A DNA stretch of 64,000 nt from Burkholderiales bacterium (lineage in GTDB: Bacteria; Pseudomonadota; Gammaproteobacteria; Burkholderiales; JAHFRG01), in NCBI GenBank assembly GCA_035624535.1, contig DASPRI010000030.1, positions 3,067 to 67,066 on the forward strand. Reading direction: 5' to 3'. Positions within the stretch are counted from its first letter, which is position 1, and every line of letters begins with the position of its first letter. Position numbers and translations under genes: made by a program. Of this stretch, positions 25,039-57,165 are shown one piece after another. The notes below the pieces were generated by a model. The model worked only from the letters and a program-made list of their open reading frames with translations, searched no databases and was not told the origin of the DNA.

Positions 25039-25135
25039 TGATCGATATCAAGAAGAAATGGATGAAAGGACCGGGTGGTCGGAATCCAAGTGCGGTTTTT
25101 CTGAAATTGGAATCATCGTTATAAAGGAGATGCGC

Positions 25136-26287: not shown

Positions 26288-26402
26288 GACGGAGACCACA
26301 CTAAACTCCAGGCTGGCAGGATTGGCATATCGCAGCGCATCATGATAACATTGCAAATCCTGCCGTATGACTAACTGTTTATTTCGAAAGCGTTCTTGAC
26401 AA

Positions 26403-32111: not shown

Positions 32112-33236
32112 TCAAGTAAAAACCACTTGACGAGACTTCGAGCGCAATGGTTTTTCGATAAATTTATAAACAAAATGGCTAACAATAAGCACCATTGATA
32201 TCAATAAAAACGAGGCAATCGCGGTCTCCAAAATGGATAGTTGCGGTATGCTTCCGCCTTCAATTACCTTTTCAGGTTTCTTCAATACAAATCGGAAAAA
32301 TTGGTTCGCTATCCAAATAATGGCAAAGTGGCACATGTACATGCTGTAAGAAATAGTCCCCAGCCAAGTTAATGCCTTGAGATTTAATATGTTTTTCAAG
32401 ATACCTTCCTTTGATGAAACCAAAGTAAATATCAACGCTGCGGTAAAAAAGTACGTTAAGTAATCAAATTCAAGTTTTGGTTTGAGTGACAGAAAAACTA
32501 GCAATCCTAAAAATGAAATAATTGAGAAAATAGAGGGTACATTTATGTTGGTGTTCTCCTTTAGTTTTGCGGTAAGGCAGCCTAAAAAGAATCCGGCATA
32601 GCAGTCCAATAATGCATCAAAACCAAAAGTGTTTTGTTTGATTAGCAGCAGGATGGAAACAAGGAACAAAGCGAAGAAGATGAAGTCCTTTACATTTTTG
32701 AAGAACAACACGACAAGACCAAACAAAAGATAGGTATAAAACTCGACGCTTATTGACCACGAAGGCGCGTTAAACATTAAAGCGTGGCCGGTCGGTCCGA
32801 TTGCCTGTATTAAGAATATATTCTGAATTAGCGCCGTTAAAATGTCGCCCATGCTAAATCGTTGCGTGTGTGGATTGTATATGCCAAATGCATTGGCGAC
32901 GTATTTTGCCAATACAAAAACAAGAAACACCGTCAAGAATAACAAATGCACCGGGTACAGCCGTCCAAAACGTAAAAATTCAAAACGCAAAAGCTGTTTG
33001 CCGTTAGTAATTTTTGCGGAATAGGAATAATAAATGACATAGCCGGATAATACGAAAAACAATTCGACCATCAAGTAGCCATTGCGAATGATTCCGTAGT
33101 CATAAAAACCCGCATTCCAATACGAAATATGAAAAATTACGACTATTAGGGCCGCCAAGCCCCTAATGCTTTCCAACTCTTCAATCTTTGTCTGAGTTTG
33201 ATATGGCTCTTGCCGTGGGTATGTCACACTGGTCAT
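32112..33236 (-). CDS. Acyltransferase family 3 membrane O-acyltransferase
   Basis: 374 aa, about 10 hydrophobic helices. The N-terminal sequence ELESIRGLAALIVVIFH fits the acyltransferase-3 (OafA/NolL-like) pattern. G+C is markedly low relative to the neighbours. Confidence 0.75.
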   Translation of the reverse strand: MTSVTYPRQEPYQTQTKIEELESIRGLAALIVVIFHISYWNAGFYDYGIIRNGYLMVELFFVLSGYVIYYSYSAKITNGKQLLRFEFLRFGRLYPVHLLFLTVFLVFVLAKYVANAFGIYNPHTQRFSMGDILTALIQNIFLIQAIGPTGHALMFNAPSWSISVEFYTYLLFGLVVLFFKNVKDFIFFALFLVSILLLIKQNTFGFDALLDCYAGFFLGCLTAKLKENTNINVPSIFSIISFLGLLVFLSLKPKLEFDYLTYFFTAALIFTLVSSKEGILKNILNLKALTWLGTISYSMYMCHFAIIWIANQFFRFVLKKPEKVIEGGSIPQLSILETAIASFLLISMVLIVSHFVYKFIEKPLRSKSRQVVFT

Positions 33237-38896: not shown

Positions 38897-39514
38897 TCAC
38901 GCCTGGTTCGATTCCTGCTGCGACAGCCTGAGATATTTCTGGTGCAATTTGTCGACCCGATTTTGCAGCTGTTCGAGGTTGGAGGTATTCGACAACACGT
39001 CATCGGCGAGTTTAAGCCGGGCCGACCGGCTTAGCTGCGTGGCCATGATGGCCCGCACCTCGGCTTCGCTCAAGCGGCTACGTGCCATGGCGCGGCCGAT
39101 TTGTTCCTTTTGATCGCAGTCCACGACCAGCACTCGCTGCACGAGCTTGCGCCAGTTGCCCGTTTCGAGCAGCAATGGCACCACCAACACGGCATACGGA
39201 GTGGTGGCGCGAGCAAGTTGCTGCAAGGCATCGGCGCGAATCAGCGGGTGCAATAACGCCTCGAGTTTTTTTTTCGCGCGCGGGTCGGAGAATATGCGGT
39301 TGCGCAGCCGAGCGCGGTCTAATGAGCCGTCACTATTAAATACCTCGTTGCCAAAGTGCCGGCGGATTGCCGCAAGAGCTGGTCCGCCAGGAGCGGTAAG
39401 ACGATGCGAGATGGCGTCCGTGTCCACAACCTGGACGCCGCGATCGGCGAATTTCTGCGCGGCGCTGCTCTTGCCACAGCCAATGCCCCCGGTTAAGCCT
39501 ACCGTAAAGGGCAT
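38897..39514 (-). CDS. coaE: Dephospho-CoA kinase
   Basis: 205 aa from MPFTVGLTGGIGCGKSS (P-loop). The 301-aa track ORF merely extends upstream into pilD. Confidence 0.9.
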   Translation of the reverse strand: MPFTVGLTGGIGCGKSSAAQKFADRGVQVVDTDAISHRLTAPGGPALAAIRRHFGNEVFNSDGSLDRARLRNRIFSDPRAKKKLEALLHPLIRADALQQLARATTPYAVLVVPLLLETGNWRKLVQRVLVVDCDQKEQIGRAMARSRLSEAEVRAIMATQLSRSARLKLADDVLSNTSNLEQLQNRVDKLHQKYLRLSQQESNQA

Positions 39515-40377
39515 AACACCGTGCCGATGTAATCGACGTGGCACAGCTGATGTCCCCAGATCAGCGCGATCAAACCGGCTGCGGCGAGGTAGGGTCCGAA
39601 CGGAATTGGAACACTGCGGCTTTGATCTTTGGCAACTATAAGGGCGATTCCGACCGTTGCGCCGACAAACGAGGAAATTAAAATTACCGGCAGCAGCATC
39701 TGCCAGCCGAGCCAAGCGCCGATCGCCGCAAGCAGCTTGAAATCCCCGTAGCCCATTCCTTCCTTTCCGGTGGCCCATTTGAACAACCAGTAAACCGACC
39801 ACAGCGCAAGATATCCCGCAATGGCACCGATGACGGCCGCTCTTAAGTCACTAAAGAGTGCGCCCAGGTTAAACAGCAAGCCGCACCACAAAAGCGGCAA
39901 GGTAATGCCGTCGGGAAGTAGCTGAGTCTCGAAATCTATAAAGGCGAGCGCAATCATGCCCCAAGCAAACAGCAGCGCCGCAAGCGCAGGCATGCCATAT
40001 CCGAACTGCCAGGCGATAGTTGCGCTCAAGATGCCGCTCAAAGCCTCGACCAGCGGATACCGTTTTGCTATCGGGGCGCCGCAGCCTGAGCATTTCCCTT
40101 TTAATATCACGTAGCTTAGTACCGGCATGTTTTCCAGCGCGGTGATAGGCTTGCCGCAATGTGGGCAGGCCGATCGCGGAACCAGGAGGTCAAAGTGCGG
40201 CGCGGGAGCGGGCGGCTCGCCCGACAATTCGGCGCACTGCTTGCGCCATTCCCGTTCCAGCATTTTTGGCAAACGGTAGATGACCACGTTCAAGAAACTG
40301 CCCACCATCAGGCCTAAAATCAGACACAGTGCGATGAATAGGTAAGGCGTGGTTTGCACCAATTGAAGCGATGACAT
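39499..40377 (-). CDS. pilD: Prepilin peptidase / N-methyltransferase
   Basis: 292 aa, polytopic, with cysteine pairs CPHCGKPI and CSGCGAPI and the GMGYGDFKL aspartyl-protease motif. Confidence 0.9.
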   Translation of the reverse strand: MSSLQLVQTTPYLFIALCLILGLMVGSFLNVVIYRLPKMLEREWRKQCAELSGEPPAPAPHFDLLVPRSACPHCGKPITALENMPVLSYVILKGKCSGCGAPIAKRYPLVEALSGILSATIAWQFGYGMPALAALLFAWGMIALAFIDFETQLLPDGITLPLLWCGLLFNLGALFSDLRAAVIGAIAGYLALWSVYWLFKWATGKEGMGYGDFKLLAAIGAWLGWQMLLPVILISSFVGATVGIALIVAKDQSRSVPIPFGPYLAAAGLIALIWGHQLCHVDYIGTVLCPLR

Positions 40378-40481: not shown

Positions 40482-41708
40482 TTATACCGCCTGGCCCATC
40501 TTGAAAATCGGGAGATACATGGCGATCACCAGGCCGCCAATTAACGTGCCAAGCACCACCATGATTACCGGCTCCATCAGGCTGCTTAGCGCGTCTACTG
40601 CGTCGTCCACTTCCCCTTCGAAAAAGTCCGCTACTTTGCTGAGCATGTTATCCAGTGCTCCGGATTCCTCGCCGATGGCCACCATCTGCAGCACCATGCT
40701 GGGGAAAACTCTGCTGTTTTGCATCGCCACAGTGAGGCTGGTACCGGTGCTGATCTCACCTTGGATCTGCTTGGTTGCCTCGTAATAGACATAATTACCG
40801 GCAGCTCCGGCCACCGAATCCAGCGCTTCTACCAACGGCACGCCAGCGGCGAACATGGTAGCGAGCGTGCGCGACCAGCGAGCAATCGTCGCTTTCTCAA
40901 TGACAGGACCTATCACGGGTATCTTCAGCATCAGGCGGTCCATGAAGAATTGCATTTTCTCGGAACGTTTCCAGGTATAGAAGAAAAACCAGATGATGAA
41001 TCCGATTATTCCGAATATCGCGTACCAGTATTTGACGAAGTAGTCGGAAATTGCCATTACGACAAGAGTGGGCGTAGGAAGATCCGCGCCGAAACTTTCA
41101 AACAGGCTCTTGAAAGCCGGAATGACAAAAATCATGATTATTGAAGTTATGACAAAGGCCACGACGATAATGGAAGTTGGGTAAAACATCGCGGATTTGA
41201 TTTTGCTCTTGATGGCGAGAATTTTTTCCTTGTAAGTGGCGAGGCGGTCCAGCAAAGTGTCCAGAATACCTGCCGCTTCGCCCGCGCCTACTAGATTGCA
41301 GAACAGGTTATCGAAGTAAAGCGGGTATTTTCTGAATGCCTGGTTCAGGCTGCTGCCGGTCTCCACATCGGTCTTGATGTCGAGCAACAGTTTCGATACC
41401 GCGGGATTGTTGTGCCCCTTGCCAACGATATCGAAAGCCTGCAGCAACGGCACACCGGATTTCATCATGGTGGCGAGCTGCCGCGTGAACAGGGTAATGT
41501 CCTTTTAAGAAACCCTTCCACGCCCGCCACGTTGTTTCTTGACTCTGAATACCTGAATACCTTGGCGGCGCAACTGGGCCCTGACCACCGCTTCGCCACC
41601 GGCTTTCATCTGACCGGAAACCGCCTTGCCGGCCTTGTCCTTGCCCTCCCAAGAAAACATCAGTTCTTTAACTTTGACGTCTTTTCTTGCGGTCGCTGCG
41701 ATTGCCAT
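40482..41708 (-). pseudogene. pilC: Type IV pilus platform protein PilC interrupted by an in-frame TAA
   Basis: ORFs 41505-41708 (PilC N-terminus: FSWEGKDKAGKAVSGQMKAGGEAVVRAQLRRQGI) and 40482-41468 (two T2SSF domains) are in the same frame. The only interruption is TAA at 41505-41507. The codons just after it read KDITLFTRQLATMMKSGVPLLQAF, which is continuous PilC sequence. The joined length of about 407 aa matches normal PilC. Confidence 0.75.
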
Positions 41709-41767: not shown

Positions 41768-44137
41768 CTATTTAATGCAAACCGCACGCACTTGGCGCAT
41801 GTCGGTGAGTCCCATTAATACTTTCTCTATGCCATCCTGTTTTAAAGTGCGCATCCCGTCTTCGATCGCTGTGGTGAACAATTGGGTAACCATTGCATGC
41901 TCCTGAATGTTCCTCTTCAATGCATTGGTGCCAACGAGCATTTCATGTAGGCCGACGCGCCCGCGGTAGCCCGTCCCGTCGCACTCCTGACAAGCTCCGG
42001 GCTCATACAGGGTAAATTGCCCGCTTGAGTCGCCAAACAGCTTGACCCAATCGTGGTGAACTTGCTTAAACGCCGCGCTCGGGTCTTTCTGCCAGGATCT
42101 GGTATTTCTCAGTTCTTCGCAATACTCCATGAGCAAGAGCTTAAATTCGTTCCGACTAACGGTGTGCGGTTTTCTGCATTTGCTGCACAGGCGCTTGGCG
42201 AGGCGTTGCGCCAGCACCCCCAGCAGCGCATCGGAGAAATTAAACGGGTCCATCCCCATGTCCAGCAAGCGTATGATCGACTCGGGCGCGCTGTTGGTGT
42301 GCAAGGTGGCAAATACCAAGTGACCGGTGAGCGACGCCTCGATGCCGATGGAAACGGTCTCCTTGTCGCGCATCTCACCCACCATGATCACGTCCGGATC
42401 ACAGCGCAGAAACGAGCGCATCGCGACCGCGAAGGTAAGCCCGGCTTTCGGGTTCATCTGCACCTGGCGCAAGCCTTTCTGGGTGATTTCCACCGGGTCT
42501 TCCGCGGTCCAGATCTTGGTTTCCGGGGTATTGATATAGCCCAGCACCGAGTGCAGGGTGGTGGTCTTGCCTGAACCGGTCGGGCCGCACACAAAGAACA
42601 ATCCGTACGGCTTGGAGATCACGCCCTTCAGGGTGTTCAGGTTGTGCTCGCTTAGAGCCAGTTTCTCCAACGGGATTGGCTCGCCTGCTCCAAGAATACG
42701 CATGACTATGTCTTCGACCGAACCCTGCGAGGGTATGGTGGCAACCCGTAATTCGATGTCCAGCGGACCGAACTTCTTGAACTTGATCTTGCCGTCCTGC
42801 GGTTTTCTTTTCTCGGAGATATCGAGATCGCACATGATCTTGATTCGCGTTACCAAAGCACTGCGGTAACTCGCGGGAATTTCTATGTACGGCACCAGCG
42901 AGCCATCCTTGCGGAAGCGGATTTCGGTCTTGGCCTTCCCTGGATAAGGTTCAATGTGAATGTCCGATGCGCCTTGATGGTAGGCGTCTATTATGATCTT
43001 GTTGACCAGCTTCACCAGTTCGTTATCCGCGGCGGCGGAAATTTCGTCCGCGCCCCCACCTTCTCCCTCGAGTTCTTCATCCAGCCCCGACAGGAGCTCA
43101 CCCACCGTGGCAACATCCATCCCTCCTGCTCCATACAGCGAGTCCAGAGTGCTGATAAATTCGCGGTTGGTGCACACCCGGTAGAGCAACTTATGCTTGG
43201 GGAATACATTGTTGGCGACTCGTGACCCCTTGATACGTTCAGGATCGGTGGTAAGAATGATCAGCCCGTCCTTCGTTTCCTCAATCGGAACCCACGAACT
43301 ATTCTGGACGAAGTCGCGCTTAAGGTTTTTCAACAACTCCGCGGGTTTGATTCGATCGGCGCGAAACGGTTCGTACGGTACCTGATAAAATTTCGATAAT
43401 GATTGCCCTAAGGAAGGAAGCTTGACCTGGAATTCGTCGATTAATACGTCTTCGATGTCGATGTTCTTCCTGCGTGCCGACCGCGTCGCAAGTTCATATT
43501 CCTCCGCCGAAATTACCGCGTCTGCAACCAGGTAATCGTATTTGGTACGGACCATATGATGCGCTTGCTGGCGCTGCTTCAGCGCAATGGCGAGGGTTTC
43601 GCAAATAAAACTCACCCCTTCTTCCATAACCTGCGCAAACGGCACTCCTCCCCTATTATTGATGATCTGCACCACGCCGATGGGCTCGCCGCTGCTGGCA
43701 TCGATAATCGGTGCCACCAGCATTTGTCTGGTCCTGTACCCGGTACGCTTATCGACTTCTTTGAGGAAACTCAGTTGTGGACTCAGCGCCCTCAACTCAT
43801 TGTCGTCATAAACATCCTTGATGTTGACCGGTTTCTTGTTCATCGCTACGAATCCGGCGATACTTTGCTCATTAATTGGCAGTTTCAAGTCCTTGAAAGA
43901 ATTGAGCCCTGTCTTCACTTTGGAAATAATCGAAGTCTTGTCTTCGGCTACCGTGTAGATGGTGAGGCGGTCCGCATTGAACAGCGAACAGATATCCTGA
44001 CTTACCTCCAACATGATTTCATCAATATTGTAAGCGGCATGGATCTTATTGGTGACCGCCTGCAATTTTTTTGTGAAATTCAGTTTTTCAGTGAGAACAT
44101 CCTTGGTTACCGGTTGCGCCTGAAATACCGTACTCAT
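41768..44137 (-). CDS. pilB: Type IV pilus extension ATPase PilB (GspE family) with an N-terminal GAF domain
   Basis: 789 aa. Residues about 30-190 are GAF-like (RLTIYTV ... IAGFVAMNKKPVNIKDVYDD ... MLVAPIID ... PIGVVQIINNRG). This is followed by a T2SSE_N-like region, Walker A GPTGSGKTTT, and the tetracysteine cluster CSKCRKP...CQECDGTGYRGR. Confidence 0.9.
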   Translation of the reverse strand: MSTVFQAQPVTKDVLTEKLNFTKKLQAVTNKIHAAYNIDEIMLEVSQDICSLFNADRLTIYTVAEDKTSIISKVKTGLNSFKDLKLPINEQSIAGFVAMNKKPVNIKDVYDDNELRALSPQLSFLKEVDKRTGYRTRQMLVAPIIDASSGEPIGVVQIINNRGGVPFAQVMEEGVSFICETLAIALKQRQQAHHMVRTKYDYLVADAVISAEEYELATRSARRKNIDIEDVLIDEFQVKLPSLGQSLSKFYQVPYEPFRADRIKPAELLKNLKRDFVQNSSWVPIEETKDGLIILTTDPERIKGSRVANNVFPKHKLLYRVCTNREFISTLDSLYGAGGMDVATVGELLSGLDEELEGEGGGADEISAAADNELVKLVNKIIIDAYHQGASDIHIEPYPGKAKTEIRFRKDGSLVPYIEIPASYRSALVTRIKIMCDLDISEKRKPQDGKIKFKKFGPLDIELRVATIPSQGSVEDIVMRILGAGEPIPLEKLALSEHNLNTLKGVISKPYGLFFVCGPTGSGKTTTLHSVLGYINTPETKIWTAEDPVEITQKGLRQVQMNPKAGLTFAVAMRSFLRCDPDVIMVGEMRDKETVSIGIEASLTGHLVFATLHTNSAPESIIRLLDMGMDPFNFSDALLGVLAQRLAKRLCSKCRKPHTVSRNEFKLLLMEYCEELRNTRSWQKDPSAAFKQVHHDWVKLFGDSSGQFTLYEPGACQECDGTGYRGRVGLHEMLVGTNALKRNIQEHAMVTQLFTTAIEDGMRTLKQDGIEKVLMGLTDMRQVRAVCIK

Positions 44138-44583
44138 AGCTAAAACCCCATTTCTACACGGTGAAAATCACTCGACTAAACCTCAGACATCCGAGCGCGT
44201 CGCAGCTCGGTTGCTGGTAATTTGAGACTGCTTGCTTCGTCGCTTTAGGACGCGTTGCCATCGACTTTTCGCGCACCCATCCTACAATACGGGCCAAAAA
44301 ACTGATACCGCCGATATTGCTTAAAACACCGATGCCTAACCACGATCGCATTGGCACAGGCAAACCGCCCCAACCCGAAGCCTCCGCGCTGATACCTGCA
44401 CTGGCCAACATAACATAAACGGGGGCCTCAAGATTTTGTGCAAGCGACGGCTGATTTTGACCGTGCACCGAAATATGCTGCTTTTTTGAGCCCCATGCGT
44501 TCCACGCAAGATTCATTCCAGCCAATTTTAGCTCCGCGAAGGCAACTAATCCAATTTATTAGTTCACATTTATTATTTCAAGC

Positions 44584-46836
44584 TCACTTGGTTTCATACA
44601 CCCAAACGCCATTCCAACCGGTGTTAGGAGGATTGACGCGAAAATTCTTGATGCGTTCCAGAAACAGCTTGTACAGGCGAGTGGTGGGCGCCATCTTTGC
44701 CAAGTTGATTAGCTGTAGCTCAGCCAGGTCCCAGTCACGTGCCCGGTAAAGTTTAAGCACCCGCTGAAACAGTTGTAATTCGTCCAATACCTCCGCATTG
44801 ACTTGGCCGTAAATCCCGAGCGGTTCGTAAATGAACACCGGTTCATCCTTGCCCTTTACCCTTACCTGATCCAGTTCGCGGTACACAATGCCGGGGACCA
44901 TGTTCTTGGTCATTTCGCTCAAGATAACGTCTGCGCCGTACTCCTTGCATAACCCCTCCAGCCTCGAGGCCAGGTTCACCGAATCGCCCATGACGGTGTA
45001 GGCCTTGCGTACCGCTGAACCCATGTCGCCCACAACCATGATGCCGGTGTTGATGCCTACGCCAATCCTGATTTCCGGCCAGCCGCGTGCCTTGAACTGC
45101 TCGCGCAACTGTCGCGCGGTAGCTTGCATTTCCAGAGCGCTGATCACGGCATTGCGCGGATGTTCCGGATCGTTCACCGGTGCACCCCAGAACGCCATAA
45201 TGGCGTCGCCAATATATTTGTCCAATGTGCCGTGGTGCGAGCGGATTATACGGGTCATCGCCGTAAGATAGGCATTGACAAAAGCAGCCAGTTCTTTAGG
45301 TTCAAGACCCTCGGAAATCGATGTGAAATCGCGCACATCTGAAAATAGCACTGACAGTTCCTGGCTTTTGCCTTCCATGCTGTAGCGCTTCGGATCCTCG
45401 CTCATTTTGTCCACCAATTCAGGCGGGACATACTGCCCGAACAGATCAGCAAACTGCCGCTTGATGCGCGACTCAGCAAAGTAGCCGTACGACATGTTGA
45501 GGGCGAACAGTGCGAGGACCAGCAACAACACGCTAGCCGCCGGCAGCACCAGGTTGCCGTAATACCAGGCAATGACATTGGTGCTGAGCACGAACAGCAA
45601 AACGCCAAGAGTAAAAAATCCCCATTTTATTGGATTGAGAAATGGCATCAACAGCGTCAAGCCCACTCCCGCAAAAAGTAGCAACACCATTTCCGCGCCG
45701 CGCACATAGGGCGGGTTTTGCTTGATATTCCCGTCGAGCATTCCGCTAATCAGATTGGCGTGGATCTCGACTCCGGGATAGGCTTTGCCGACCGGTGTCG
45801 AGCGCAAATCCTTGAGCCCGGGGGCGGTGGTACCGATCAGCACTATCGTGCCTTTGAGTTCTCCGGGATTAAGTCTGTCATGCAGCACGTCGGTAGCAGA
45901 CACGTACCTGAAACTACCCTGCTTTCCCCGATAGGGCACCAGGGCTGCAACATTCTCATCCACCGGAATTCGTAGCGGTCCCACTTTCAGAAATTCAAGC
46001 CTGGAAAAATCCTTCGCTCCGAGGCCCATATGCAACAGCTGGTCGGAGGCGTAATCTGGTTCCACATTTGGGAAGCCCAGCAAAGCACGAACGATGGCAA
46101 GCGACAACGGCTCATAGTATGCGTCTTTGTACTTGGCGAGCATTGGCACACGTCTGTTGACGCCATCGGCGGCATCGTAAATCGGGTTGATGTGGCCCGC
46201 ACCGGCGGCGGCTTGCTGCAACTCAGCGAGGTTTGCGCCATAGCCGTCCCAGGTGACAAATTGAATACCCTTGCCGGGAAAGGTGCCCGCAGGAAGGACT
46301 GGGGGCGGCAAAGCATTTAGCGTTACGTATTTGCCCGCGAATTCTTCATTGGTAAAGTAGTAGCCAAGCAGAACCGGATGCTTTTTCAGGCTCGCGGCGA
46401 ATATCCGGTCGTATTCAAGCTCGGGCCGCACCTGCGCCAGCGCAGCCTGAAACTGTGGATCGCTTTTAAACTGTCCTCGCGACAAATCTTCCAAAACTCG
46501 GAGTCCCGAACTTTCGTCTTTCTCTGCGAACACCATGTCAAATCCTGCGACCTCGGCGCCATAGCGGTCGAACAGCTTGTCCACCATCAATGCGACACGG
46601 TTTCGGCTCCATGGCCAATGCCCTTCTTCCGCCAGACTTTTTTCGTCGATGTCCACGATCACGATGCGATTGTCAACGGTGTCCGGCATGGTGAGCCGCA
46701 GGCGCGCATCGTAAATAATGGAATCCAGCTGTTGCAAGAAAGTGAATTCGTGAATCTTTGCCACATGAGCTAGAAACACCAGCGTGATGACCAGACCCAG
46801 GATGATGCGGAGCCAGTGTTTTTTTATATCTAACAA
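44584..46836 (-). CDS. CHASE2 sensor-domain class III adenylate/guanylate cyclase
   Basis: 750 aa. It has an N-terminal transmembrane helix, a CHASE2-like periplasmic region (VIVDIDEKSLAEEGHWPWSRN) and three transmembrane helices. The cyclase domain follows (VLFSDVRDFTSISE, GDAIMAFWGAP, YTVMGDSVNLASRLEG). TTG start. Confidence 0.9.
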   Translation of the reverse strand: MLDIKKHWLRIILGLVITLVFLAHVAKIHEFTFLQQLDSIIYDARLRLTMPDTVDNRIVIVDIDEKSLAEEGHWPWSRNRVALMVDKLFDRYGAEVAGFDMVFAEKDESSGLRVLEDLSRGQFKSDPQFQAALAQVRPELEYDRIFAASLKKHPVLLGYYFTNEEFAGKYVTLNALPPPVLPAGTFPGKGIQFVTWDGYGANLAELQQAAAGAGHINPIYDAADGVNRRVPMLAKYKDAYYEPLSLAIVRALLGFPNVEPDYASDQLLHMGLGAKDFSRLEFLKVGPLRIPVDENVAALVPYRGKQGSFRYVSATDVLHDRLNPGELKGTIVLIGTTAPGLKDLRSTPVGKAYPGVEIHANLISGMLDGNIKQNPPYVRGAEMVLLLFAGVGLTLLMPFLNPIKWGFFTLGVLLFVLSTNVIAWYYGNLVLPAASVLLLVLALFALNMSYGYFAESRIKRQFADLFGQYVPPELVDKMSEDPKRYSMEGKSQELSVLFSDVRDFTSISEGLEPKELAAFVNAYLTAMTRIIRSHHGTLDKYIGDAIMAFWGAPVNDPEHPRNAVISALEMQATARQLREQFKARGWPEIRIGVGINTGIMVVGDMGSAVRKAYTVMGDSVNLASRLEGLCKEYGADVILSEMTKNMVPGIVYRELDQVRVKGKDEPVFIYEPLGIYGQVNAEVLDELQLFQRVLKLYRARDWDLAELQLINLAKMAPTTRLYKLFLERIKNFRVNPPNTGWNGVWVYETK

Positions 46837-47052
46837 GCGGCTTCCTTCCTGCGGACCGGGAACCGATGCACCTGGGTGATGCCATGTGGATCAATCGAAG
46901 GAACAGCGACCCCGGGACAGACGGTACAGCTAAGCGCCGGGGGCGCGAAGGAACGCGGTCCGTGCGTGCGGGTTTCGTATGTCGCGTTTTGACTTAACGC
47001 GGCACCCCGCTGCGCTGCGCTCATCAGCCCCTCTTGCTTGACCTGTGACCGC

Positions 47053-48162
47053 TCAGGCCACTTTATAGAAGAACTCCATCTTTATTCCCCCGAGCTCGAT
47101 GATGTCGTGATCGTTCAAGGCATGCGCCTGAGCGTCGAGAGCCTTTCCGTTCAGCAGCGGAAAGGTCGCGCCTTCTACGTGTGTGATGAAGTAACCTTGC
47201 GGGCGACGTGTAATAACTGCCACTTGCACGCCCGGCTTGCCCAAAGTTGTGAGACTCTTGGTCAAATCTAACTCCTTGCCTGCGCTAGGGCCAGTGAGTA
47301 TTTGAATAGATCCGAGACGGGGGGATTTGACTTCCGCTGCTGTGGAAGGTCTCCGCTCTGCCATTGCCACAGCAGGTTTAGCCATGGCCGGTTTGGGCTT
47401 ATCTTCTGCCGCAGGCTTGACTTCTACTACCGGTTTGACTTCCGCAGTAGGTTTGAGCTCGGCGGGTTTAATTCGGGCTTCTGCGGCTGGTTTCAATCCC
47501 GCCCCCGGCTTCATCTCTGCAGCCGGCTTCGTCTCTGCCGCAGGTTTCGTTTCGATCGCCGGCTTCACTTCGATGAAGGGTTTTACCTCGGCCACCGGTT
47601 TCAGCTCCGGCTCTGCTTTCATTTCGCTCATCTGCCGCATCTCGGTGGGTTTCATCTCGGCGGCCGATTTTGCTTCGCCCGCTGCCTGTTTATGCTCCAC
47701 GGCTTTAGCCTCTGCAGCAAGTTTCGCGGCTACGGCGGCATCAGGAATAGTATCCATCGGCTGCGGTTGCTCTGCAGTCTGCAATTGCTGAATAATTCCT
47801 TCGCCCGTCCTGAACCCCGGTTTGGGATGGATCACCACAGTCTTTTCATAATTGCCACCAGCGGCCTGGCTCGGCTGCTCACTGAGGTATTTCAATTTAT
47901 ACTTGCCGAGCTCAATGACGTCATTATTTTGCAGGAAATGCTTTTTCACCATATTGCCGTTCACGAAGGTTCCGTTGGTGCTGCCTAGATCTTCCAAGAA
48001 CGAATCGTTGAGTATGGTGACGATGACCGCGTGCTCGCCGCTCACTGCAAGATTGTCGATCTGTATGTCATTGCTTGGTTTCCGGCCAATGGTAGTGCGC
48101 TCCTTGCTGAGGGGAATTTCCTTCATCACCAGGTTGTCCATGCTAAGAATCAACTTCGCCAT
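47053..48162 (-). CDS. FHA-domain protein with a central KP-rich repeat linker and a C-terminal FHA-like domain
   Basis: 369 aa. The N-terminal FHA domain reads TIGRKPSNDIQIDNLAVSGEHAVI...GSTNGTFVNG. The central region contains about 12 hexapeptide repeats. The C-terminal roughly 90 aa is FHA-like (LLNGKAL...DHDIIELGGIKMEF). Confidence 0.85.
   Translation of the reverse strand: MAKLILSMDNLVMKEIPLSKERTTIGRKPSNDIQIDNLAVSGEHAVIVTILNDSFLEDLGSTNGTFVNGNMVKKHFLQNNDVIELGKYKLKYLSEQPSQAAGGNYEKTVVIHPKPGFRTGEGIIQQLQTAEQPQPMDTIPDAAVAAKLAAEAKAVEHKQAAGEAKSAAEMKPTEMRQMSEMKAEPELKPVAEVKPFIEVKPAIETKPAAETKPAAEMKPGAGLKPAAEARIKPAELKPTAEVKPVVEVKPAAEDKPKPAMAKPAVAMAERRPSTAAEVKSPRLGSIQILTGPSAGKELDLTKSLTTLGKPGVQVAVITRRPQGYFITHVEGATFPLLNGKALDAQAHALNDHDIIELGGIKMEFFYKVA
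47368..47670 (-). repeat. Imperfect 18-nt (hexapeptide) tandem repeats inside the FHA gene
   Basis: The protein segment reads ...ELKPVAEVKPFIEVKPAIETKPAAETKPAAEMKPGAGLKPAAEARIKPAELKPTAEVKPVVEVKPAAEDKP.... The DNA shows recurring GGCTTC/GGTTTC units with 18-nt spacing. Confidence 0.7.
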
Positions 48163-48169
48163 AATTTCC

Positions 48170-49030
48170 TCACACCCTCGCTAACCTGAACCACGATGAT
48201 AACCGGCTTATCCAGTCCGCACCAACAGGTAGGTGGCGCAAAATGCGCACCAGGATCACCGAAATATTATCGCGCCCGCCGTTATCGTTTGCCAATTGCA
48301 CCAGTTGCTGCGATGCCAGCGGCAAATTGGCTTGCAGGCTCGATAGCGTAAGTTGAATTTCACCATCCTCCACCATATCGCTCAATCCGTCTGAGCAAAG
48401 CAGATAGAGATCGCCAACTTCCACCTCGTACGTATGAATCTCTGGCTCGACTTCGGGATCAATTCCCAAGGCGCGTGTTACCAGATTTCTGTTGAGGGAG
48501 AATCTCGCCATTTCCTGGGTAATCATGCCGGAGTCGATTTGTTCCTGCAATAGCGAATGATCCCGGGTAATTTGCTTAAGTTCGTCCCGGCGTAACCGGT
48601 AAAGACGCGAATCGCCAAGGTGTGCCACGCTTAAATGTCTATCATAAAATAATCCGACTAGAAGGGTGGTGCCCATTCCGGCATATTGCGGCTGACTTTT
48701 CGCCGCCTGATATATCGACGCATTGGCCCCCGCGATCTGCTCCCTCAAAATTCTTACCGCCTGCGTCTCTCCGCTCGTCGGCTCGACCCTGCCCGGTTCG
48801 GCACCCATCAAGATTTGCTTCAGGCTGGTGCCGAGCATGGCGGTGGCAATACCGCTCGCCACTTCACCGGCATTATACCCGCCCATTCCGTCCGCGAGGA
48901 TAACATAACCGCTTGCGGCGTCCACCGCGATGCTGTCCTCGTTGTGCGAACGCACCATGCCCGGGTCGGTGGCAGCAACAATTTCCAATGCCTTGCTCTG
49001 GTCCATAAACCCTCTTTCAAGCGCCGACAT
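48170..49030 (-). CDS. PP2C-family Ser/Thr protein phosphatase
   Basis: 286 aa with the motifs RSHNEDS, LADGMGG, LCSDGLSD and GGRDNISVILV. It overlaps the kinase stop by 14 nt. Confidence 0.9.
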   Translation of the reverse strand: MSALERGFMDQSKALEIVAATDPGMVRSHNEDSIAVDAASGYVILADGMGGYNAGEVASGIATAMLGTSLKQILMGAEPGRVEPTSGETQAVRILREQIAGANASIYQAAKSQPQYAGMGTTLLVGLFYDRHLSVAHLGDSRLYRLRRDELKQITRDHSLLQEQIDSGMITQEMARFSLNRNLVTRALGIDPEVEPEIHTYEVEVGDLYLLCSDGLSDMVEDGEIQLTLSSLQANLPLASQQLVQLANDNGGRDNISVILVRILRHLPVGADWISRLSSWFRLARV

Positions 49031-51584
49031 TCACGATTTCCTGACTTGCCATGCATTGCCTAAGCGCTTGGGCCATTTCAGTACCCGTCTGATAGCGCTG
49101 CTCTACTTGCTTTGCCAAAGCTTTGTAAATGATGGCGACTAGACATTCAGGTAGCCCAGGCTTAATGCTGCGAATATCGGCGGGTTGCTCGTTGGCGATT
49201 TTGAACATGAGTTGGGCCATGGATTCGCCCACAAATGGCAATTTTCCGCAAGCCAGCTGATAGAGGCTCACTCCCAACGAAAACAAATCGGAGCGACCAT
49301 CGATTTTTTTCCCGGCTAACTGCTCTGGAGACATGTACGAAGGCGTGCCAAGCACCATGCCGGTTTTGGTTTTGCTGGAATCCGTTATACGGGCAATGCC
49401 AAAGTCAGTTACTTTCAGCGTGTCGCTTGCCGGCTCATACATCATGTTCGCCGGCTTGATGTCGCGGTGAACGACGTTGTGCGTATGCGCGTACGACAGA
49501 GCATCGGCAATCCTGGCCACAATGCTCATCACCTTGAGAGGCGGCAGAAGATTGTCCGGCTTGGTGTGAGATACCAAATCTTTGCCCTGCAAAAACTCCA
49601 TTGCGATGTAGGCCAAGTCGTGTTCTTCCCCGGCGTCGAATATGGTGACAATATTCGGATGGTTGAGGCGCCCGGCAGTTTCCGCTTCGCGGAAAAAGCG
49701 CGCTTTCACCTCTTGCAGTTCATCGGCATCAAATTCCTGCGCAAGCGCCAAGGTTTTGATCGCGACTACGCGGCTGATCTTGGGGTCCTTGCCTAAATAC
49801 ACCACACCCATCGCTCCCTTGCCCAGTTCTTTTTCCACCTGATAGCGGCCGAGCATCGGTTTTTCCACCTGTGCGCCTTCGACTACCAAAGCGCCGCCGG
49901 GGTGGCTTGCGCCAGCACCGCCAAGAATTACCGTTTCCGACATCTGCCTGGCGCGCGCAAGCTTCTGTGCCAAGTCCCGGTACTTGGGATTGTACTCATT
50001 CATGTGTCGGTACACCGATTCCGCCTTGTTGAATTGACGCTTGCGCTCGAAATCCAGCGCTAGGTTATACAAAAGGTCCATTACGCCGTCGTCGAGTCGA
50101 AGTTTGCGGAATTTGTCAAACGCCATGTCGAGCTGACCCTGTCCCTGAAACGCCAGCCCGAGCATACGGTTTGATTCCGCCGATTCGGCTTCGGATTTCT
50201 CCTTGCCCTTTTCGGTCACCAAGAAACGCTTGGTGGTGAGCAGTAGATGGCCAATCAAAAGCAGAGTCGCTGGCAGCATCAGCTTCAACCAGGTCGTCTT
50301 GCCGACCATGAGCGCAAATTGCGTGCCGAGCAGGACAGCTAACAGGGAAAAGGTGATGAACGCCGCCGTCCCGGCCTTCAGTCTGGGAAGAAGCAAGATT
50401 AAATAGAGCGCAACTAGCAGATAACTGATCCTCTCGACCCACGGTCCCCAGGTCGGGACGATAAAGAAATCCTCTTGCAGAATGCTCGACACCGAATGCG
50501 CGAGTGTAAGCACCGGCGCCATGGTCGGCGAGATAGGCGTAACTTGCATAGCTCCCACCCCGGCCGCGGTGGCTCCAATAAGCACAATCTTGTCGCGGTA
50601 CTTGTCTGCGGGAATCTTGCCCGTATAAACGTCATAAAATGAATCCACCGGAAACGCTGGCCGGTTATCACGATCCTTATAAAAGTAGACATACATTTGC
50701 AGGTTAGGGTCGGTAGCGATTTTCAGTTTGCCGAGATTGACCCCTTCACCGGGGCGTATCACGATGTCGCTAGGCTGGAGGTTAAGACTTTTCGCCGCCA
50801 GCATCAGCGAAAGTGAAGGGAAATATTTGTCGTAGTAGCCGAGCACCAGCGGCTCGGTGCGCACACCCCCATCCACATCCGGATTGACATTTAGGTGCCC
50901 GATCCCAGCGGCATTTGCGCCGAACTCGGCAAGAGGAGCGATCAGAATGCTCGTCGTGGGAAAAGGAAGCATGTCATCCGAAGCCGCGGCCAAGTTATTT
51001 TCGCCGTTGGAAAGTTCGTTCTTGGCTATAAACTCGGGCAGCGGGTGGTCGGGCTTGCCGACGGGCTCCCCAAGCTGAAACAGCATGGCGAGCAACACGT
51101 TTTTCGCCTTTTGTATGCTCTCCTCGAGTTGGCGATCGGTGTTGAGGCGCTGCTCTGCTTCTTTGAGCAAGTCGCCCATCTGGGAGATTGCCTGTTGCGC
51201 AGTCGGTTCCTCGAGATTGGTCAAACCCGAATTCGCGTACAGCTGTGTAAGCTTGTTGATGTATTCCAGCCCAGGATCAACTTGCGGCTCGGAAAAAAAT
51301 ACTGTGTAGCCGATGACCTTGACGTTGGCGCCGGCAAGGAGGTCAATCATTTTTGCGTGTACTTCACGCGACCACGGCCAGCGCCCAATGTTGTCGATGC
51401 TTTGATCGTCGATCGCGATCACCGCGATTTTCTGGTTGGGAACGCGTGACGATGCCTTGACCCCAAGATCATATGCCTTGCGTTCTAGGCTTTGAATCAG
51501 ATCCCCGCCGCCCATGAAAAATAGCACCACGGCGACGATCAGCACCAGGAACCAATCAGCTTTCCAGAATGCGCTTTTTTTCAT
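49017..51584 (-). CDS. CHASE2 sensor-domain Ser/Thr protein kinase (Hanks type)
   Basis: 855 aa. It has an N-terminal transmembrane helix, a CHASE2-like region (VIAIDDQSIDNIGRWPWSRE), transmembrane helices and a TPR-like linker. The kinase domain follows (GKGAMGVVYLG, AIK, HRDIKPANMM, DFGIAR, GTPSYMSPEQ). Confidence 0.9.
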   Translation of the reverse strand: MKKSAFWKADWFLVLIVAVVLFFMGGGDLIQSLERKAYDLGVKASSRVPNQKIAVIAIDDQSIDNIGRWPWSREVHAKMIDLLAGANVKVIGYTVFFSEPQVDPGLEYINKLTQLYANSGLTNLEEPTAQQAISQMGDLLKEAEQRLNTDRQLEESIQKAKNVLLAMLFQLGEPVGKPDHPLPEFIAKNELSNGENNLAAASDDMLPFPTTSILIAPLAEFGANAAGIGHLNVNPDVDGGVRTEPLVLGYYDKYFPSLSLMLAAKSLNLQPSDIVIRPGEGVNLGKLKIATDPNLQMYVYFYKDRDNRPAFPVDSFYDVYTGKIPADKYRDKIVLIGATAAGVGAMQVTPISPTMAPVLTLAHSVSSILQEDFFIVPTWGPWVERISYLLVALYLILLLPRLKAGTAAFITFSLLAVLLGTQFALMVGKTTWLKLMLPATLLLIGHLLLTTKRFLVTEKGKEKSEAESAESNRMLGLAFQGQGQLDMAFDKFRKLRLDDGVMDLLYNLALDFERKRQFNKAESVYRHMNEYNPKYRDLAQKLARARQMSETVILGGAGASHPGGALVVEGAQVEKPMLGRYQVEKELGKGAMGVVYLGKDPKISRVVAIKTLALAQEFDADELQEVKARFFREAETAGRLNHPNIVTIFDAGEEHDLAYIAMEFLQGKDLVSHTKPDNLLPPLKVMSIVARIADALSYAHTHNVVHRDIKPANMMYEPASDTLKVTDFGIARITDSSKTKTGMVLGTPSYMSPEQLAGKKIDGRSDLFSLGVSLYQLACGKLPFVGESMAQLMFKIANEQPADIRSIKPGLPECLVAIIYKALAKQVEQRYQTGTEMAQALRQCMASQEIVNVGA

Positions 51585-51802
51585 CCCTGAACTCTGAATT
51601 TATTTTTTTGCAGGTGAAATTTCAAATTTTATTTTACGCATTTTATGATATTCATTTGTAAAGCACGCTTTTTTTTGCATCTTCCAGCTCCCCCAGACGC
51701 AGCTAGGCCGGATCCACCTTGGGAAATTTATAACCGAGCTCACTCACCATGCCGCCACGGTAAAACCCAATGAAATCAACCACTAATCAAGACCTGCGGC
51801 GA

Positions 51803-52486
51803 TCAAGCTTTGTGTTGAAGCGTGTTAAGCCATTTGCCCGTCGCCACAACGAAAAAAGCGCCCGTGATCGGCACAATCAAATTCAAAACATTCGCATAAT
51901 TATTTATCCAGTTAATCGTCAACGGGTCGCTCACCAACATTTCCCCGGCAATGTAGCCTAGAAGCGCGGCACCCAGCGTAATGATTACCGGGAAGCGCTG
52001 CATCAGCTTGAGAATCAGAGTGCTGCCAAAAATAATCAGCGGAATGCTTATGGCTAGCCCGAGTATCAGCAGGATAATATTGCCTTTGGCGGCTGCCGCG
52101 ACGCCAATCACGTTATCCAGGCTCATCACTAGGTCAGCAAGCACGATGATTTTTATGGCGGAAAACAAATGATTGCTTCCTTGAATGCCATTTCCATCTT
52201 CTTTGCCAGGAAGCAGCAGTTTCACCGCAATCCAAAACAATAGCAGGCTGCCAATGATCTTGAGCGATGGCAGCTTCAGGAGTTCTACCGCGAACACCGT
52301 GAGAATCACTCGCGCCACGATGGCTGCGACGCTGCCCCAAATGATCGCCTGTTTCTGCCGCCTGCCATGCAATGAACGCGCAGCAAGCGCAATCACCACC
52401 GCGTTGTCGCCCGAGAGCAGGATATTTACGCCGATGATTTCGAGCAACCCGATCCAGAATTCCGGGCTGCCCAACATCATGATCAC
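51803..52486 (-). CDS. TerC-family integral membrane protein
   Basis: 227 aa with the duplicated LSGDNAVVIALA / MSLDNVIGVAAAA motifs characteristic of TerC/YjbE-type proteins. Confidence 0.85.
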   Translation of the reverse strand: MIMMLGSPEFWIGLLEIIGVNILLSGDNAVVIALAARSLHGRRQKQAIIWGSVAAIVARVILTVFAVELLKLPSLKIIGSLLLFWIAVKLLLPGKEDGNGIQGSNHLFSAIKIIVLADLVMSLDNVIGVAAAAKGNIILLILGLAISIPLIIFGSTLILKLMQRFPVIITLGAALLGYIAGEMLVSDPLTINWINNYANVLNLIVPITGAFFVVATGKWLNTLQHKA

Positions 52487-52501
52487 GTTTTCCTTGTCGC
52501 C

Positions 52502-54178
52502 CTAAAATAATCCTACAACTTTGCCGTCGTCGTTGAGATCGATTTTCTCCGCCGCCGGCACCTTGGGCAATCCGGGCATGGTCATGATGTCTCCGCAAAT
52601 CATCACCACGAATTCAGCGCCGGCGGAGAGCCGCACTTCTCGGATGTTCACTACATAACCGGAAGGCGCCGCACGCAATCTGGCATCGGCGGAAAACGAG
52701 TATTGCGTCTTGGCGACGCACACTGGATAGTGGCCATAACCATCATCTTGCAGCTTCTGGATCTGCCCGCGCACCTTGGCGTCTGCGGTGATATCCGCCG
52801 CGCCGTAAATCTTGGTGGCGATTGCTTTCATCTTGTCCCACAGTGGAGCCGATTCCTCGTAAACAAATTTGCCGCCTGCTGGCATCTTGTCGACGATGCC
52901 TGCCACGGTGCGCGCCAGTTCTTCCGCCCCCTTGCCGCCTTCTGCCCAGTGAGTCGCGAGCACCACCGGCGTTTGGCTTGCCGCCATTTTCTTTCTAAGG
53001 AGCTCGATCTCCGCATCGGTATCAAAAGTGAAATGGTTGATGGAAACGATACAAGGCAAGCCATAATGGTTGCGCACATTGCTCACATGCCGCTCCAGGT
53101 TGGCGATTCCTTTATCCAGTGCCGGAAGGTTTTCCTTGTTGATTTCTTTCAAATCGACTCCGCCGTGATATTTAAGTGCGCGCATGGTTGCGACAAGCAC
53201 CACTGCCGAGGGGCGTAAACCTGCCTTGCGGCACTTGATGTCAACGAATTTTTCCGCACCCAGATCGGCGCCAAATCCAGCCTCGGTCACCACGTAATCC
53301 GCGAGCTTCAGAGCGGTTTTGGTGGCGATTACCGAATTGCAACCGTGAGCTATATTCGCAAACGGTCCGCCGTGGATGAAAGCAGGATTGTTCTCCAGCG
53401 TCTGCACCAGGTTTGGTTGCAGTGCGTCCTTGAGCAGCACCGTCATTGCACCGTCCACCTTGAGTTGGCGGGCTGTCACCGGTTTCTGCTCGCGCGTATA
53501 GCCAACAACGATGTTACCCAAGCGATTTTTCAAATCCTTTAGCGAGGTGGCAAGACAGAATATTGCCATCACTTCGGACGCCACCACGATGTCAAATCCG
53601 TCCTGGCGTGGATAACCGTTACCGGTCCCGCCCAGCGAAATCACAATTTCGCGCAGCGCCCGATCATTCATATCCACCACGCGCCGCCAAGTAATGCGCC
53701 GTACATCCAGGTCGAGCGCGTTACCGTGATGAACGTGATTGTCGACTGCCGCAGCGAGCAGGTTGTTGGCCAGCCCGACCGCGTTGAAGTCGCCGGTGAA
53801 ATGCAAATTGATGTCCTCCATCGGCACCACCTGTGCGTAGCCGCCGCCCGCAGCGCCGCCTTTTATGCCGAATACTGGCCCAAGACTTGGCTCGCGTATG
53901 CACAGCACAGCCCTTTTGCCAATGCGGTTCAGGGCATCGCACAATCCGACAGTGGTGGTGGTTTTTCCTTCACCGGCAGGGGTAGGAGTAATGGCTGTAA
54001 CCAGAATCAGCTTTCCGTCTGGCCTGTTTTTGATACTGTCAACGAAATCCAGCGATAACTTGGCCTTGTAATGGCCGTACGGTTCCAGATACTGTTCGTC
54101 TATCCCAAGCTTGTCTTTCGCCAGCTTGGATATGCGCAGCATTTTCGCTTTTTGTGCGATTTCAATATCAGTCAGCAT
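52502..54178 (-). CDS. fhs: Formate--tetrahydrofolate ligase
   Basis: 558 aa beginning MLTDIEIAQ, with the P-loop [14 protein letters not shown] and the family-typical [11 protein letters not shown]. Confidence 0.95.
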
Positions 54179-54309
54179 ATCGGGTCCCCCTTTTTGAACA
54201 ATTATCGTCTTGCACCGTGCGCGTACGGTGAGATGATCTGCCGCGCGCTCCCGTTATTTCGCCTAGGCCAGTTTGAGGCTAGCGCGACCTCGGTCGAGTC
54301 ACCGGCGAA

Positions 54310-57114: not shown

Positions 57115-57165
57115 TTACCTCGTTGAAATTGCAGCAAATCCACAGCACTCAATCGACATCTTACT

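Follow-up and report, generated by a model that had tools for sequence, protein, structure and literature searches.

Two CHASE2 receptors, a kinase/phosphatase/FHA trio and a GAF-bearing PilB: a predicted cAMP and phospho-threonine input to type IV pilus extension in Betaproteobacteria

Bacteria use type IV pili to move over surfaces, to attach, to take up DNA and to form biofilms, and the second-messenger control known for them is either transcriptional, through cyclic AMP (cAMP) with Vfr or SYCRP1, or is exerted by cyclic di-GMP (c-di-GMP) at sites of the MshEN or PilZ type. Here, we describe a 64,000-nucleotide stretch of a Burkholderiales genome (contig DASPRI010000030.1; hereafter the window) in which four genes, encoding a CHASE2 receptor Ser/Thr kinase, a PP2C phosphatase, an FHA adaptor protein and a predicted CHASE2 receptor adenylate cyclase, lie upstream of a gene for a type IV pilus extension ATPase, PilB, that carries a GAF domain. 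From sequence comparison, these four genes appear to be the input half of a betaproteobacterial module that would set the activity of the pilus extension motor through cAMP and phospho-threonine, a reading to which we assign a probability of roughly 0.55.

Several described systems resemble parts of this locus. In the PpkA/PppA/Fha1 pathway, a Ser/Thr kinase, a PP2C phosphatase and an FHA protein regulate an envelope machine, type VI secretion, post-translationally. As in that pathway, the gene for a Hanks kinase with a membrane receptor part stands here beside those for a PP2C and an FHA adaptor, and the action on an envelope machine that belongs to the former is proposed for the latter; here, however, the sensor is CHASE2, the second FHA-like domain is degenerate and the match to the TagH model falls below its cut-off. 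No type VI secretion genes were present among the neighbouring genes scanned with Pfam. The CyaB-cAMP-Vfr-CpdA circuit of P. aeruginosa is reportedly linked to type IV pili, its receptor being the transcription factor Vfr and its sensor something other than CHASE2. Common to that circuit and to the present locus are a membrane class IIIb cyclase with the same Lys/Thr pair, a dedicated cAMP phosphodiesterase (here in relatives of the window) and type IV pili as the target, which in our case is predicted; the differences are that here the motor itself carries the receptor domain and that a Ser/Thr kinase/PP2C/FHA branch is attached. Cya1 of Synechocystis carries an FHA domain, and therefore provides a domain-fusion precedent for a link between FHA and cyclase. 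In the Cya1-cAMP-SYCRP1 system, pilus-dependent motility needs the cAMP that this class III cyclase makes, but the output is transcriptional (Sycrp1/2), and CHASE2, a separate kinase and PP2C, and a GAF domain on PilB are all lacking (PMC7690835).

In the MshEN control of V. cholerae MshE and of PilBs, the extension ATPase bears an N-terminal regulatory domain that reads a nucleotide second messenger (PMC5013675), and the MshEN-like fold is retained in the PilB described here. In contrast to those proteins, both of its 24-residue motifs are destroyed, as they are in 64 orthologues, a GAF domain of the type that binds cyclic nucleotide monophosphates (cNMP) stands in front, and the predicted messenger is cAMP from the adjacent cyclase gene. 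By profile and fold, this GAF is closest to the cNMP-binding GAFs of Anabaena CyaB1/CyaB2, PDE2/5/6/10 and Leptospira Lcd1 (PMC4411481; 1ykd, 2zmf, 1mc0, 5w10), the outputs of which are cyclases, phosphodiesterases and diguanylate cyclases and never a pilus or secretion ATPase, and in which the NKFDE motif is not reduced to the partial form found here. CHASE2 is coupled to a cytoplasmic signalling output both in the CyaD1/CyaD2/CyaK-Clr system of S. meliloti (PMC5498481) and in the Burkholderia BiofilmReg CHASE2-FecR operon (PMC5192318), the CHASE2-FecR neighbourhood of which is echoed by a FecR insertion in one group of relatives of the window. Unlike the present locus, these systems employ a CRP-like regulator or a histidine kinase/response regulator, and in none of them are two CHASE2 receptors combined with a pilus ATPase.

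It is evident that every domain considered here is already known, as are CHASE2-kinase and CHASE2-cyclase fusions, trios of Ser/Thr kinase, PP2C and FHA protein, transcriptional control of pili by cAMP, and control of PilB and MshE by c-di-GMP. An earlier note on this DNA could not assign the arrangement to a characterised system. We agree, since the literature searched, which left subscription journals largely outside, contained no description of a pilus extension ATPase in which a cNMP-type GAF replaces a functional MshEN site, nor of a block that joins two CHASE2 receptors, a phospho-threonine trio, a cyclase/phosphodiesterase pair and a GAF-bearing PilB.

A block of signalling and pilus genes shared with relatives

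The four genes follow one another on the minus strand as kinase (49017..51584, 855 aa), PP2C of the PPM type (48170..49030, 286 aa from the first ATG), FHA protein (47053..48162, 369 aa) and cyclase (44584..46836, 750 aa, with a TTG start), the order and orientation that had been proposed earlier. The assignments draw on Pfam throughout, together with motifs and hydropathy for the kinase, NCBIfam for the phosphatase, hhalign for the FHA protein and structural relatives for the cyclase, and every kind of domain that had been named was matched by Pfam: CHASE2 in both end proteins, Pkinase, PP2C_2, FHA and Guanylate_cyc. At the level of open reading frames (ORFs), the spacing is also as previously given, with an overlap of 14 nucleotides (nt) between kinase and PP2C and gaps of 7 nt and 216 nt thereafter. 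The overlap vanishes, however, if PP2C begins at Met9 (ATG 49006), which is probably its true start because the corresponding gene of a close relative (locus L001, 81% identical) is called in this way, with 278 aa; a gap of ~10 nt to the kinase would then result. A promoter-like site, TTGAAA-17-TAAATT (51597..51625, minus strand), lies 13 nt upstream of the kinase ATG, as a match from a consensus scan that is not evidence of function. The same kind of scan gave no terminator-like site in the 216-nt gap between FHA gene and cyclase and only weak promoter-like sites within the cassette, and Rfam, at gathering thresholds over the window, placed no riboswitch or other RNA in the intergenic gaps of the cassette.

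To look at the neighbourhood across species, we aligned 27 cyclase orthologues and searched GTDB genomes, one for each species, with the result. Relatives of the cyclase are encoded in at least 597 genomes, and the best 80 loci, with cyclases 52-81% identical, were examined with 10-kb flanks; ORFs were taken from six frames and labelled by phmmer, representative genes were checked against Pfam, and all counts below refer to loci with enough sequence. The carriers are Betaproteobacteria-type metagenome-assembled genomes (MAGs) or isolates (Gallionella, Sideroxydans, Sulfuricella, Sulfuritalea, Propionivibrio, Sterolibacterium, Nitrosomonadales), along with one gammaproteobacterial MAG. The dominant order is kinase, PP2C, FHA protein, cyclase, phosphodiesterase, in some loci a cNMP_binding+Rhodanese protein, then GAF-PilB, GAF-HD-GYP and pilin, Wzy_C or TPR genes. 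The trio of kinase, PP2C and FHA protein stands upstream of the cyclase, co-directionally, in 57 of 64 species-level loci, which bears out the co-conservation on which the cassette had been predicated, and GAF-PilB is found downstream of the cyclase in 60 of 65. A cNMP phosphodiesterase of the metallo-beta-lactamase (MBL) fold, class-II-like (Pfam PDEase_II, 46.1 bits), follows the cyclase in 58 of 65 loci, at a median gap of 9 nt; the medians are 6 nt between kinase and PP2C and 16 nt between PP2C and FHA gene. About a third of the loci (L031:12942-14114 and ~25 others) have, between the genes for the phosphodiesterase and GAF-PilB, one for a 390-aa cNMP_binding+Rhodanese protein, and a GAF-HD-GYP protein is encoded in 53 of 58, directly after GAF-PilB in most relatives (e.g. 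L031:16670-18352, L009:15532-17169). The latter is a predicted c-di-GMP phosphodiesterase with a GAF that is likewise of the cNMP type (PDE5 GAF, E 8e-20), and its presence suggests a predicted cross-talk from cNMP to c-di-GMP.

In all, some 60 of the 80 species share the block, and its order is kept across family-level divergence (cyclases 52-60% identical) while the outer flanks differ. Variants occur within it: in the Sulfuricella group (L002:13033-16024, L007, L073), TPR/SlipAM (Slam-like outer-membrane) and FecR-domain proteins are inserted between phosphodiesterase and GAF-PilB; 'Ca. Dechloromonas phosphorivorans' has a kinase devoid of CHASE2 and no GAF-PilB; and at L056 the CHASE2 part is missing from the kinase, Asn stands for Thr in the motif of the FHA protein, and the trio is accompanied by cyclase, phosphodiesterase and GAF-HD-GYP with no GAF-PilB. 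In the gammaproteobacterial MAG (L070), cyclase and trio stand alone, placed convergently among Mla, MutS and HtpG genes, which suggests that the trio has its partner in the cyclase and not in PilB. Overall, as judged from gene order and sequence conservation, the four genes are a true unit, wired in Betaproteobacteria to a cNMP/pilus block.

The GAF domain of PilB and the proteins encoded upstream

The earlier note had treated pilBCD merely as the neighbour of the cassette, and thereby overlooked the cNMP-type GAF on PilB as well as the cNMP genes that follow the cyclase in relatives. PilB (41768..44137, minus strand, 789 aa; Pfam, NCBIfam) matches T2SSE (E 8.6e-114), GAF (E 3.9e-10) and MshEN (E 2.8e-7, 30.9 bits) in Pfam, its GAF occupying residues 38-186 (nt 43580-44026) and its Walker A motif residues 518-526. 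A profile built from 25 homologues of the first 336 residues was searched against all PDB sequences and had as its best match the tandem cAMP-binding GAFs of Anabaena CyaB2 (1ykd, E 5.9e-31), followed by PDE10A GAF-B (2e-13), PDE2A (1.6e-12), PDE5 (4e-12) and also PDE6, the PDE10/2/5/6 matches spanning 1e-13 to 1e-7; GAFs that do not bind cNMP came at 1e-5 or worse, with the exception of the PmGH GAF-like domain (1e-13). Foldseek, given an AlphaFold2 (AF2) model (predicted local distance difference test, pLDDT, 83), recovered the same relatives and, in addition, the cAMP-bound Lcd1 GAF. Moreover, the ligand-contact residues T293, I308, D356 and N359 of CyaB2 GAF-B (PMC4411481) align with T59, V74, D129 and T132 of PilB, which are invariant or nearly so in the 25 homologues. 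By profile, predicted fold and conserved ligand-site positions, the GAF belongs to the cNMP-binding subfamily, and binding itself is predicted.

A functional MshEN domain has two tandem 24-residue c-di-GMP motifs, RLGxx(L/V/I)(L/V/I)xxG(L/V/I)(L/V/I)xxxxLxxxLxxQ (PMC5013675). In the MshEN-like segment of PilB (residues 198-251, nt 43385-43546), RLG has become TKY and RxG has become IDIE, and even a relaxed pattern of the motif was found in none of 64 full-length PilB orthologues. The c-di-GMP site of MshEN is thus destroyed in the GAF-PilB family, and the GAF therefore appears to have taken over the second-messenger input. The context of the gene is that of a pilus locus, with pilC and pilD in the window and pilin and Wzy_C genes in relatives. 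The possibility that the pilB of the window is a chimera of a GAF-pilB and a canonical pilB was rejected, as it is 78-84% identical to GAF-PilBs across the ATPase domain with no breakpoint. More distant GAF-PilB-like ATPases are numerous, a GAF-domain search at E <= 1e-30 having returned 151 clusters with one, two or three GAFs. A GAF-PilB-like ATPase at L090:4012-13135, ~40% identical to P0296, lies amid LapD (GGDEF-EAL), two BTLCP/LapG-like proteases and a TolC-like protein, surroundings that are an adhesin-release context and not a pilus locus.

The cyclase (CHASE2 E 6.3e-59, Guanylate_cyc E 1.3e-22 in Pfam) consists of a transmembrane (TM) segment at residues 8-26, the CHASE2 domain, three TM segments at 382-446, a catalytic domain at 490-665 and a helical C-terminal extension of ~85 aa. 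The best solved relatives of the catalytic domain are Synechocystis Cya2, P. aeruginosa CyaB (3r5g, E 7e-34) and Spirulina CyaC. The metal residues D500 and D544, the substrate pair K540/T614 and the transition-state residues N621/R625 are 100% conserved in 79 orthologues, so that on a proper alignment the full catalytic set is present. These positions align with those of CyaB and CyaC, whereas the guanylate cyclase Cya2 has Glu and Gly at the Lys and Thr positions of the same alignment. Since CyaB and CyaC, which share the Lys540/Thr614 pair, are adenylate cyclases of class IIIb, the predicted product is cAMP. Enzymes of this class often respond to bicarbonate.

The kinase (CHASE2 E 5.9e-55, Pkinase E 1.3e-52 in Pfam) is built in a similar fashion, with TM1 at 12-30, a periplasmic CHASE2 domain, three TM segments at ~386-451, a conserved TPR-like linker and a Hanks kinase domain at 581-832. 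The two CHASE2 (PF05226) matches score 187 bits in the kinase and 200.1 bits in the cyclase against a gathering cut-off of 26.3, and a Kyte-Doolittle scan predicts ~350 extracytoplasmic residues between TM1 and the three-TM cluster in either protein; no TM segment was seen in the hydropathy scan of the FHA protein, PP2C or PilB. Thus, the multi-helix anchor (one TM segment plus three) and the WPWSR(E/N) signature that had been attributed to both sensors are present in each, the latter as WPWSRE at residues 69-74 of the kinase and WPWSRN at residues 74-79 of the cyclase, and their outputs do differ, being a Hanks-type kinase and a class III cyclase with catalytic residues intact. What could not be established is the earlier idea that one type of stimulus drives the two. 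Their CHASE2 domains are only ~26% identical and may therefore sense different cues, and the design looks like one that integrates two inputs rather than duplicating one.

The kinase motifs VAIKT (607-611), HRDIKPAN (706-713) and DFGIAR (727-732) are in place, and 56 orthologues keep VAIK, HRD and DFG along with the TKTG of the activation loop; in the same set, a juxtamembrane motif, S-E-T551-V-I-L554 (49923-49940, minus strand), keeps T551 in 96% and L554 in 100%. PP2C (PP2C_2 E 1.5e-13 in Pfam) exceeds the cut-off of the NCBIfam Stp1/IreP equivalog (245.9 bits against 230), and its metal motifs ADGMGG and GRDN are conserved in 68 orthologues. In the FHA protein, the N-terminal domain (residues 23-86; Pfam FHA E 3.5e-22) is canonical, and its TIGR, SGEH and STNG motifs keep the Gly-Arg, Ser-x-x-His and Asn-Gly residues of a phospho-threonine reader. 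It is followed by Y-E-K-T108-V-V-I (47830-47850, minus strand), which takes the form [FY]E[KR]T-x-x-[LIMV] in 72 of 74 orthologues. Many FHA domains favour a hydrophobic residue at +3, and both T-x-x-L/I motifs have one; the T551 and T108 motifs are candidate phospho-acceptor or FHA docking sites.

The protein had been described as FHA-repeat-FHA, of which the N-terminal FHA and the repeat linker hold and the second FHA does not, being degenerate and devoid of phospho-threonine-binding residues. The linker is Pro/Ala-rich and variable in length, the whole protein ranging from 228 to 369 aa across orthologues. In the window, it is expanded to ~14 E-x-K-P-x pentapeptides (residues ~170-265; 47368-47655, minus strand), with a tandem repeat in the DNA at 47507-47550; the expansion is common only to the window, L001 and L003, the other orthologues having short Pro/Ala-rich linkers (228-300 aa in total). 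The highly conserved C-terminal domain (~285-369, ~85 residues) has no Pfam FHA match and only a sub-threshold one to Yop-YscD_cpl (E 2e-4), but hhalign relates it to the N-terminal FHA with 92% probability (E 5.6e-7). The homology rests on hhalign, a single-sequence AF2 model (pLDDT 49) being unusable. This domain appears to be FHA-derived, and it is unlikely to read phospho-threonine because the loop with Ser-x-x-His is deleted and the Arg of GR is replaced by Lys.

A proposed pathway and its alternatives

In the pathway that we propose, two receptors of computed architecture 1 TM - CHASE2 - 3 TM would sense periplasmic or envelope cues, and the CHASE2 cyclase, given Lys540/Thr614 and its full catalytic set, would make cAMP. 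Binding of cAMP to the N-terminal GAF of PilB, as suggested by GAF homology and conserved adjacency, would alter how the ATPase hexamer works or assembles and, with it, pilus extension. In relatives, the phosphodiesterase encoded right after the cyclase would reset the signal, and the cNMP_binding-Rhodanese and GAF-HD-GYP proteins would branch it towards c-di-GMP turnover; in the lineage of the window, the phosphodiesterase has decayed, and GAF-pilB comes directly ahead of pilC-pilD-coaE-zapD. On the phospho-threonine side, the CHASE2 kinase may autophosphorylate at its activation loop and/or at the candidate juxtamembrane site SET551VIL, and the FHA protein would dock on the phosphorylated kinase through its N-terminal FHA and may itself be phosphorylated at EKT108xxΦ. 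The conserved but degenerate FHA-like domain at its C-terminus would bind a partner, for which the cyclase is the likeliest candidate, and PP2C would reverse the phosphorylation. In the most speculative step, this branch would gate or tune cAMP synthesis and so integrate two cues. We infer the direction of the cAMP effect on PilB, the phospho-acceptor sites and the partner of the C-terminal domain of the FHA protein. The full evolutionary version of this proposal, in which a pilus ATPase family swapped c-di-GMP sensing by MshEN for cAMP sensing by GAF, fed by a CHASE2 cyclase that is gated via a second CHASE2 receptor, Ser/Thr phosphorylation and an FHA adaptor, is put forward tentatively, at somewhat less than even odds.

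Several observations weigh against the proposed pathway. The NKFDE motif of the PilB GAF is kept in part (N160, F167, E173), with the Lys shifted by one position (Arg in the window) and the Asp replaced, and ligand specificity is not readable from the sequence of a GAF domain, the ligands of which are diverse (PMC4411481). PilB scores 462.6 bits against NCBIfam TIGR02538, below the equivalog cut-off of 675.65, although type_IV_pilB is still its best NCBIfam model, ahead of GspE (431.8). The FHA-cyclase junction is the loosest of the block (median 76 nt; 216 nt in the window), so that each half may be transcribed as a unit of its own. In four species (L008, L012, L017, L055), the kinase has been lost and PP2C, FHA protein and cyclase kept, L008 retaining an 80-residue kinase remnant. 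Further, at three distant GAF-PilB loci with full flanks found in a metagenome scan with P0296 (L084, L088, L090), no cyclase, kinase, PP2C, FHA protein or phosphodiesterase occurs within 10 kb, so that the link is confined to the clade of Betaproteobacteria. Finally, the phosphodiesterase is lost and pilC has a stop codon in the window, and the pathway may therefore be altered or partly inactive here.

These last features make the window a derived form. The earlier note had placed the cassette directly upstream of pilBCD, and the order is indeed as stated, but a decayed relic of an MBL-fold, class-II-like cNMP phosphodiesterase gene (44138..44583, minus strand; DNA alignment) intervenes between cyclase and pilB, and pilC is interrupted. 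In its nearest relatives, L001 (81%) and L003 (78%), the phosphodiesterase gene is truncated (L001:12354-12784, L003:12445-12795), in a form that the phosphodiesterase hidden Markov model recognises at E 1.3e-42 and E 4.5e-49, respectively, against E 0.46, no match, in the window. The DNA at 44138-44583 nevertheless aligns with them from end to end (mean column identity 66%); it has no start codon any more, and a weak protein match of 34% over 38 aa remains. A 123-aa ORF at 44154-44525 was considered as a small gene, but it has no Pfam match and its DNA is homologous to the truncated genes of L001 and L003; it is probably not a gene. Homologues of the phosphodiesterase, cNMP_binding-Rhodanese, GAF-HD-GYP, FecR and Slam proteins are found nowhere in the 64-kb window. 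Downstream of GAF-pilB come pilC, for the T2SSF platform protein (40482..41708, minus strand, 408 codons; Pfam T2SSF 5.5e-62), pilD, for the prepilin peptidase (39499..40377, minus strand; Pfam A24_N_bact and Peptidase_A24), and, as the next two ORFs, coaE (dephospho-CoA kinase) and zapD (NCBIfam), which is the usual housekeeping pilus locus; a GAF-pilB/pilC junction is absent from the other 81 loci. The stop in pilC is a single TAA at codon 68 (nt 41505-41507, ...GRGRVS*KDITLFTRQ...) in an otherwise full-length gene. Translation rules out a frameshift; a nonsense mutation or an error in the assembly could account for the stop, or pilC could be a pseudogene.

One might therefore think of the module as decaying in this genome and no longer working as a unit, with the phosphodiesterase reduced to an unrecognisable relic by way of truncated intermediates as in L001 and L003, and with an in-frame TAA in pilC. 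We consider this improbable: kinase, PP2C, FHA protein, cyclase and GAF-PilB are full length with catalytic residues intact, the proteins of the window are 78-98% identical to those of related MAGs, and a lone stop codon could be an assembly error. An alternative that concerns the wiring rather than the state of the module is that the trio acts directly on the pilus machine, parallel to cAMP, the FHA protein being a phospho-dependent scaffold for PilB or the platform and not for the cyclase. Such trios are regulators of envelope machines at the post-translational level, in 60 of 65 loci PilB closes the block, and the partial NCBIfam matches of the FHA protein are to TagH and GltG. The TagH score of 49 bits is, however, far under its cut-off of 120.25, the trio stays with the cyclase at L070 with no PilB nearby, and L056 combines trio, cyclase, phosphodiesterase and GAF-HD-GYP without GAF-PilB; direct action on the pilus is hence, in our estimate, unlikely.

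It is also conceivable that the cassette is a general envelope transducer, the cAMP of which acts through distant CRP-type receptors, while the GAF of PilB binds another ligand or serves oligomerisation alone and the adjacency of pilB is inherited synteny. This would fit the CHASE2 cyclases CyaD1/CyaD2/CyaK of S. meliloti, which work through the CRP-like Clr (PMC5498481), the distant GAF-PilB clades with no neighbouring cyclases and the diversity of GAF ligands (PMC4411481). Yet the order is held over family-level divergence where outer flanks differ, the GAF is of the cNMP subfamily with its ligand-site residues conserved, and the genes between cyclase and PilB in relatives encode a cNMP phosphodiesterase and a cNMP-binding protein, and we regard a role apart from the pilus as quite unlikely. 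An anti-phage cyclic-nucleotide system, with a Pycsar-like cyclase and a kinase, comes to mind as PADLOC PycC models match the catalytic domain of the cyclase (best E 9.8e-29), PD-T4-6 models match the kinase domain and the phosphodiesterase of relatives matches Pfam Anti-Pycsar_Apyc1. However, the PADLOC matches are limited to shared catalytic domains, the window holds no Pycsar effector, the Lys/Thr substrate pair is of the adenylate cyclase type, and the genes occupy a stable chromosomal position beside housekeeping genes in dozens of species, all of which leaves a defence role with a very small probability.

The wider window and the significance of the block

Upstream of the kinase, at 51803-58848 on the minus strand, lie genes for TerC, formate-tetrahydrofolate ligase, a formate dehydrogenase alpha-like molybdoenzyme and a NuoF-like subunit; TerC precedes the kinase in ~20 related loci too. 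Elsewhere in the window, Rfam has only two matches, an RNase P RNA class A (7773-8098, plus strand, 261 bits) and one tRNA (63848-63920, minus strand). A long same-strand run of ORFs at 8798-27314 (plus strand) has the sizes and order expected of a dcw cluster, and a 930-aa ORF at 29026-31818 (plus strand) is SecA-sized, both being putative assignments from ORF lengths. The segment 32001-34000, which spans a 374-aa ORF (32112-33236, minus strand), has a G+C content of 0.437 against ~0.55 elsewhere and may be foreign DNA.

If the proposed module is real, it would constitute a direct, fast post-translational switch by cAMP on the pilus assembly motor, and would give CHASE2 receptors their first defined output in environmental Betaproteobacteria. 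CHASE2 is a widespread sensor, and the block would offer a concrete, assayable output for it, while also tying the Hanks kinase and the cyclic nucleotide together as branches of one conserved signalling block. The carriers, Gallionella, Sideroxydans, Sulfuricella, Sulfuritalea and their relatives, are iron- and sulfur-oxidisers of groundwater and sediment, and attachment to mineral surfaces matters to them.

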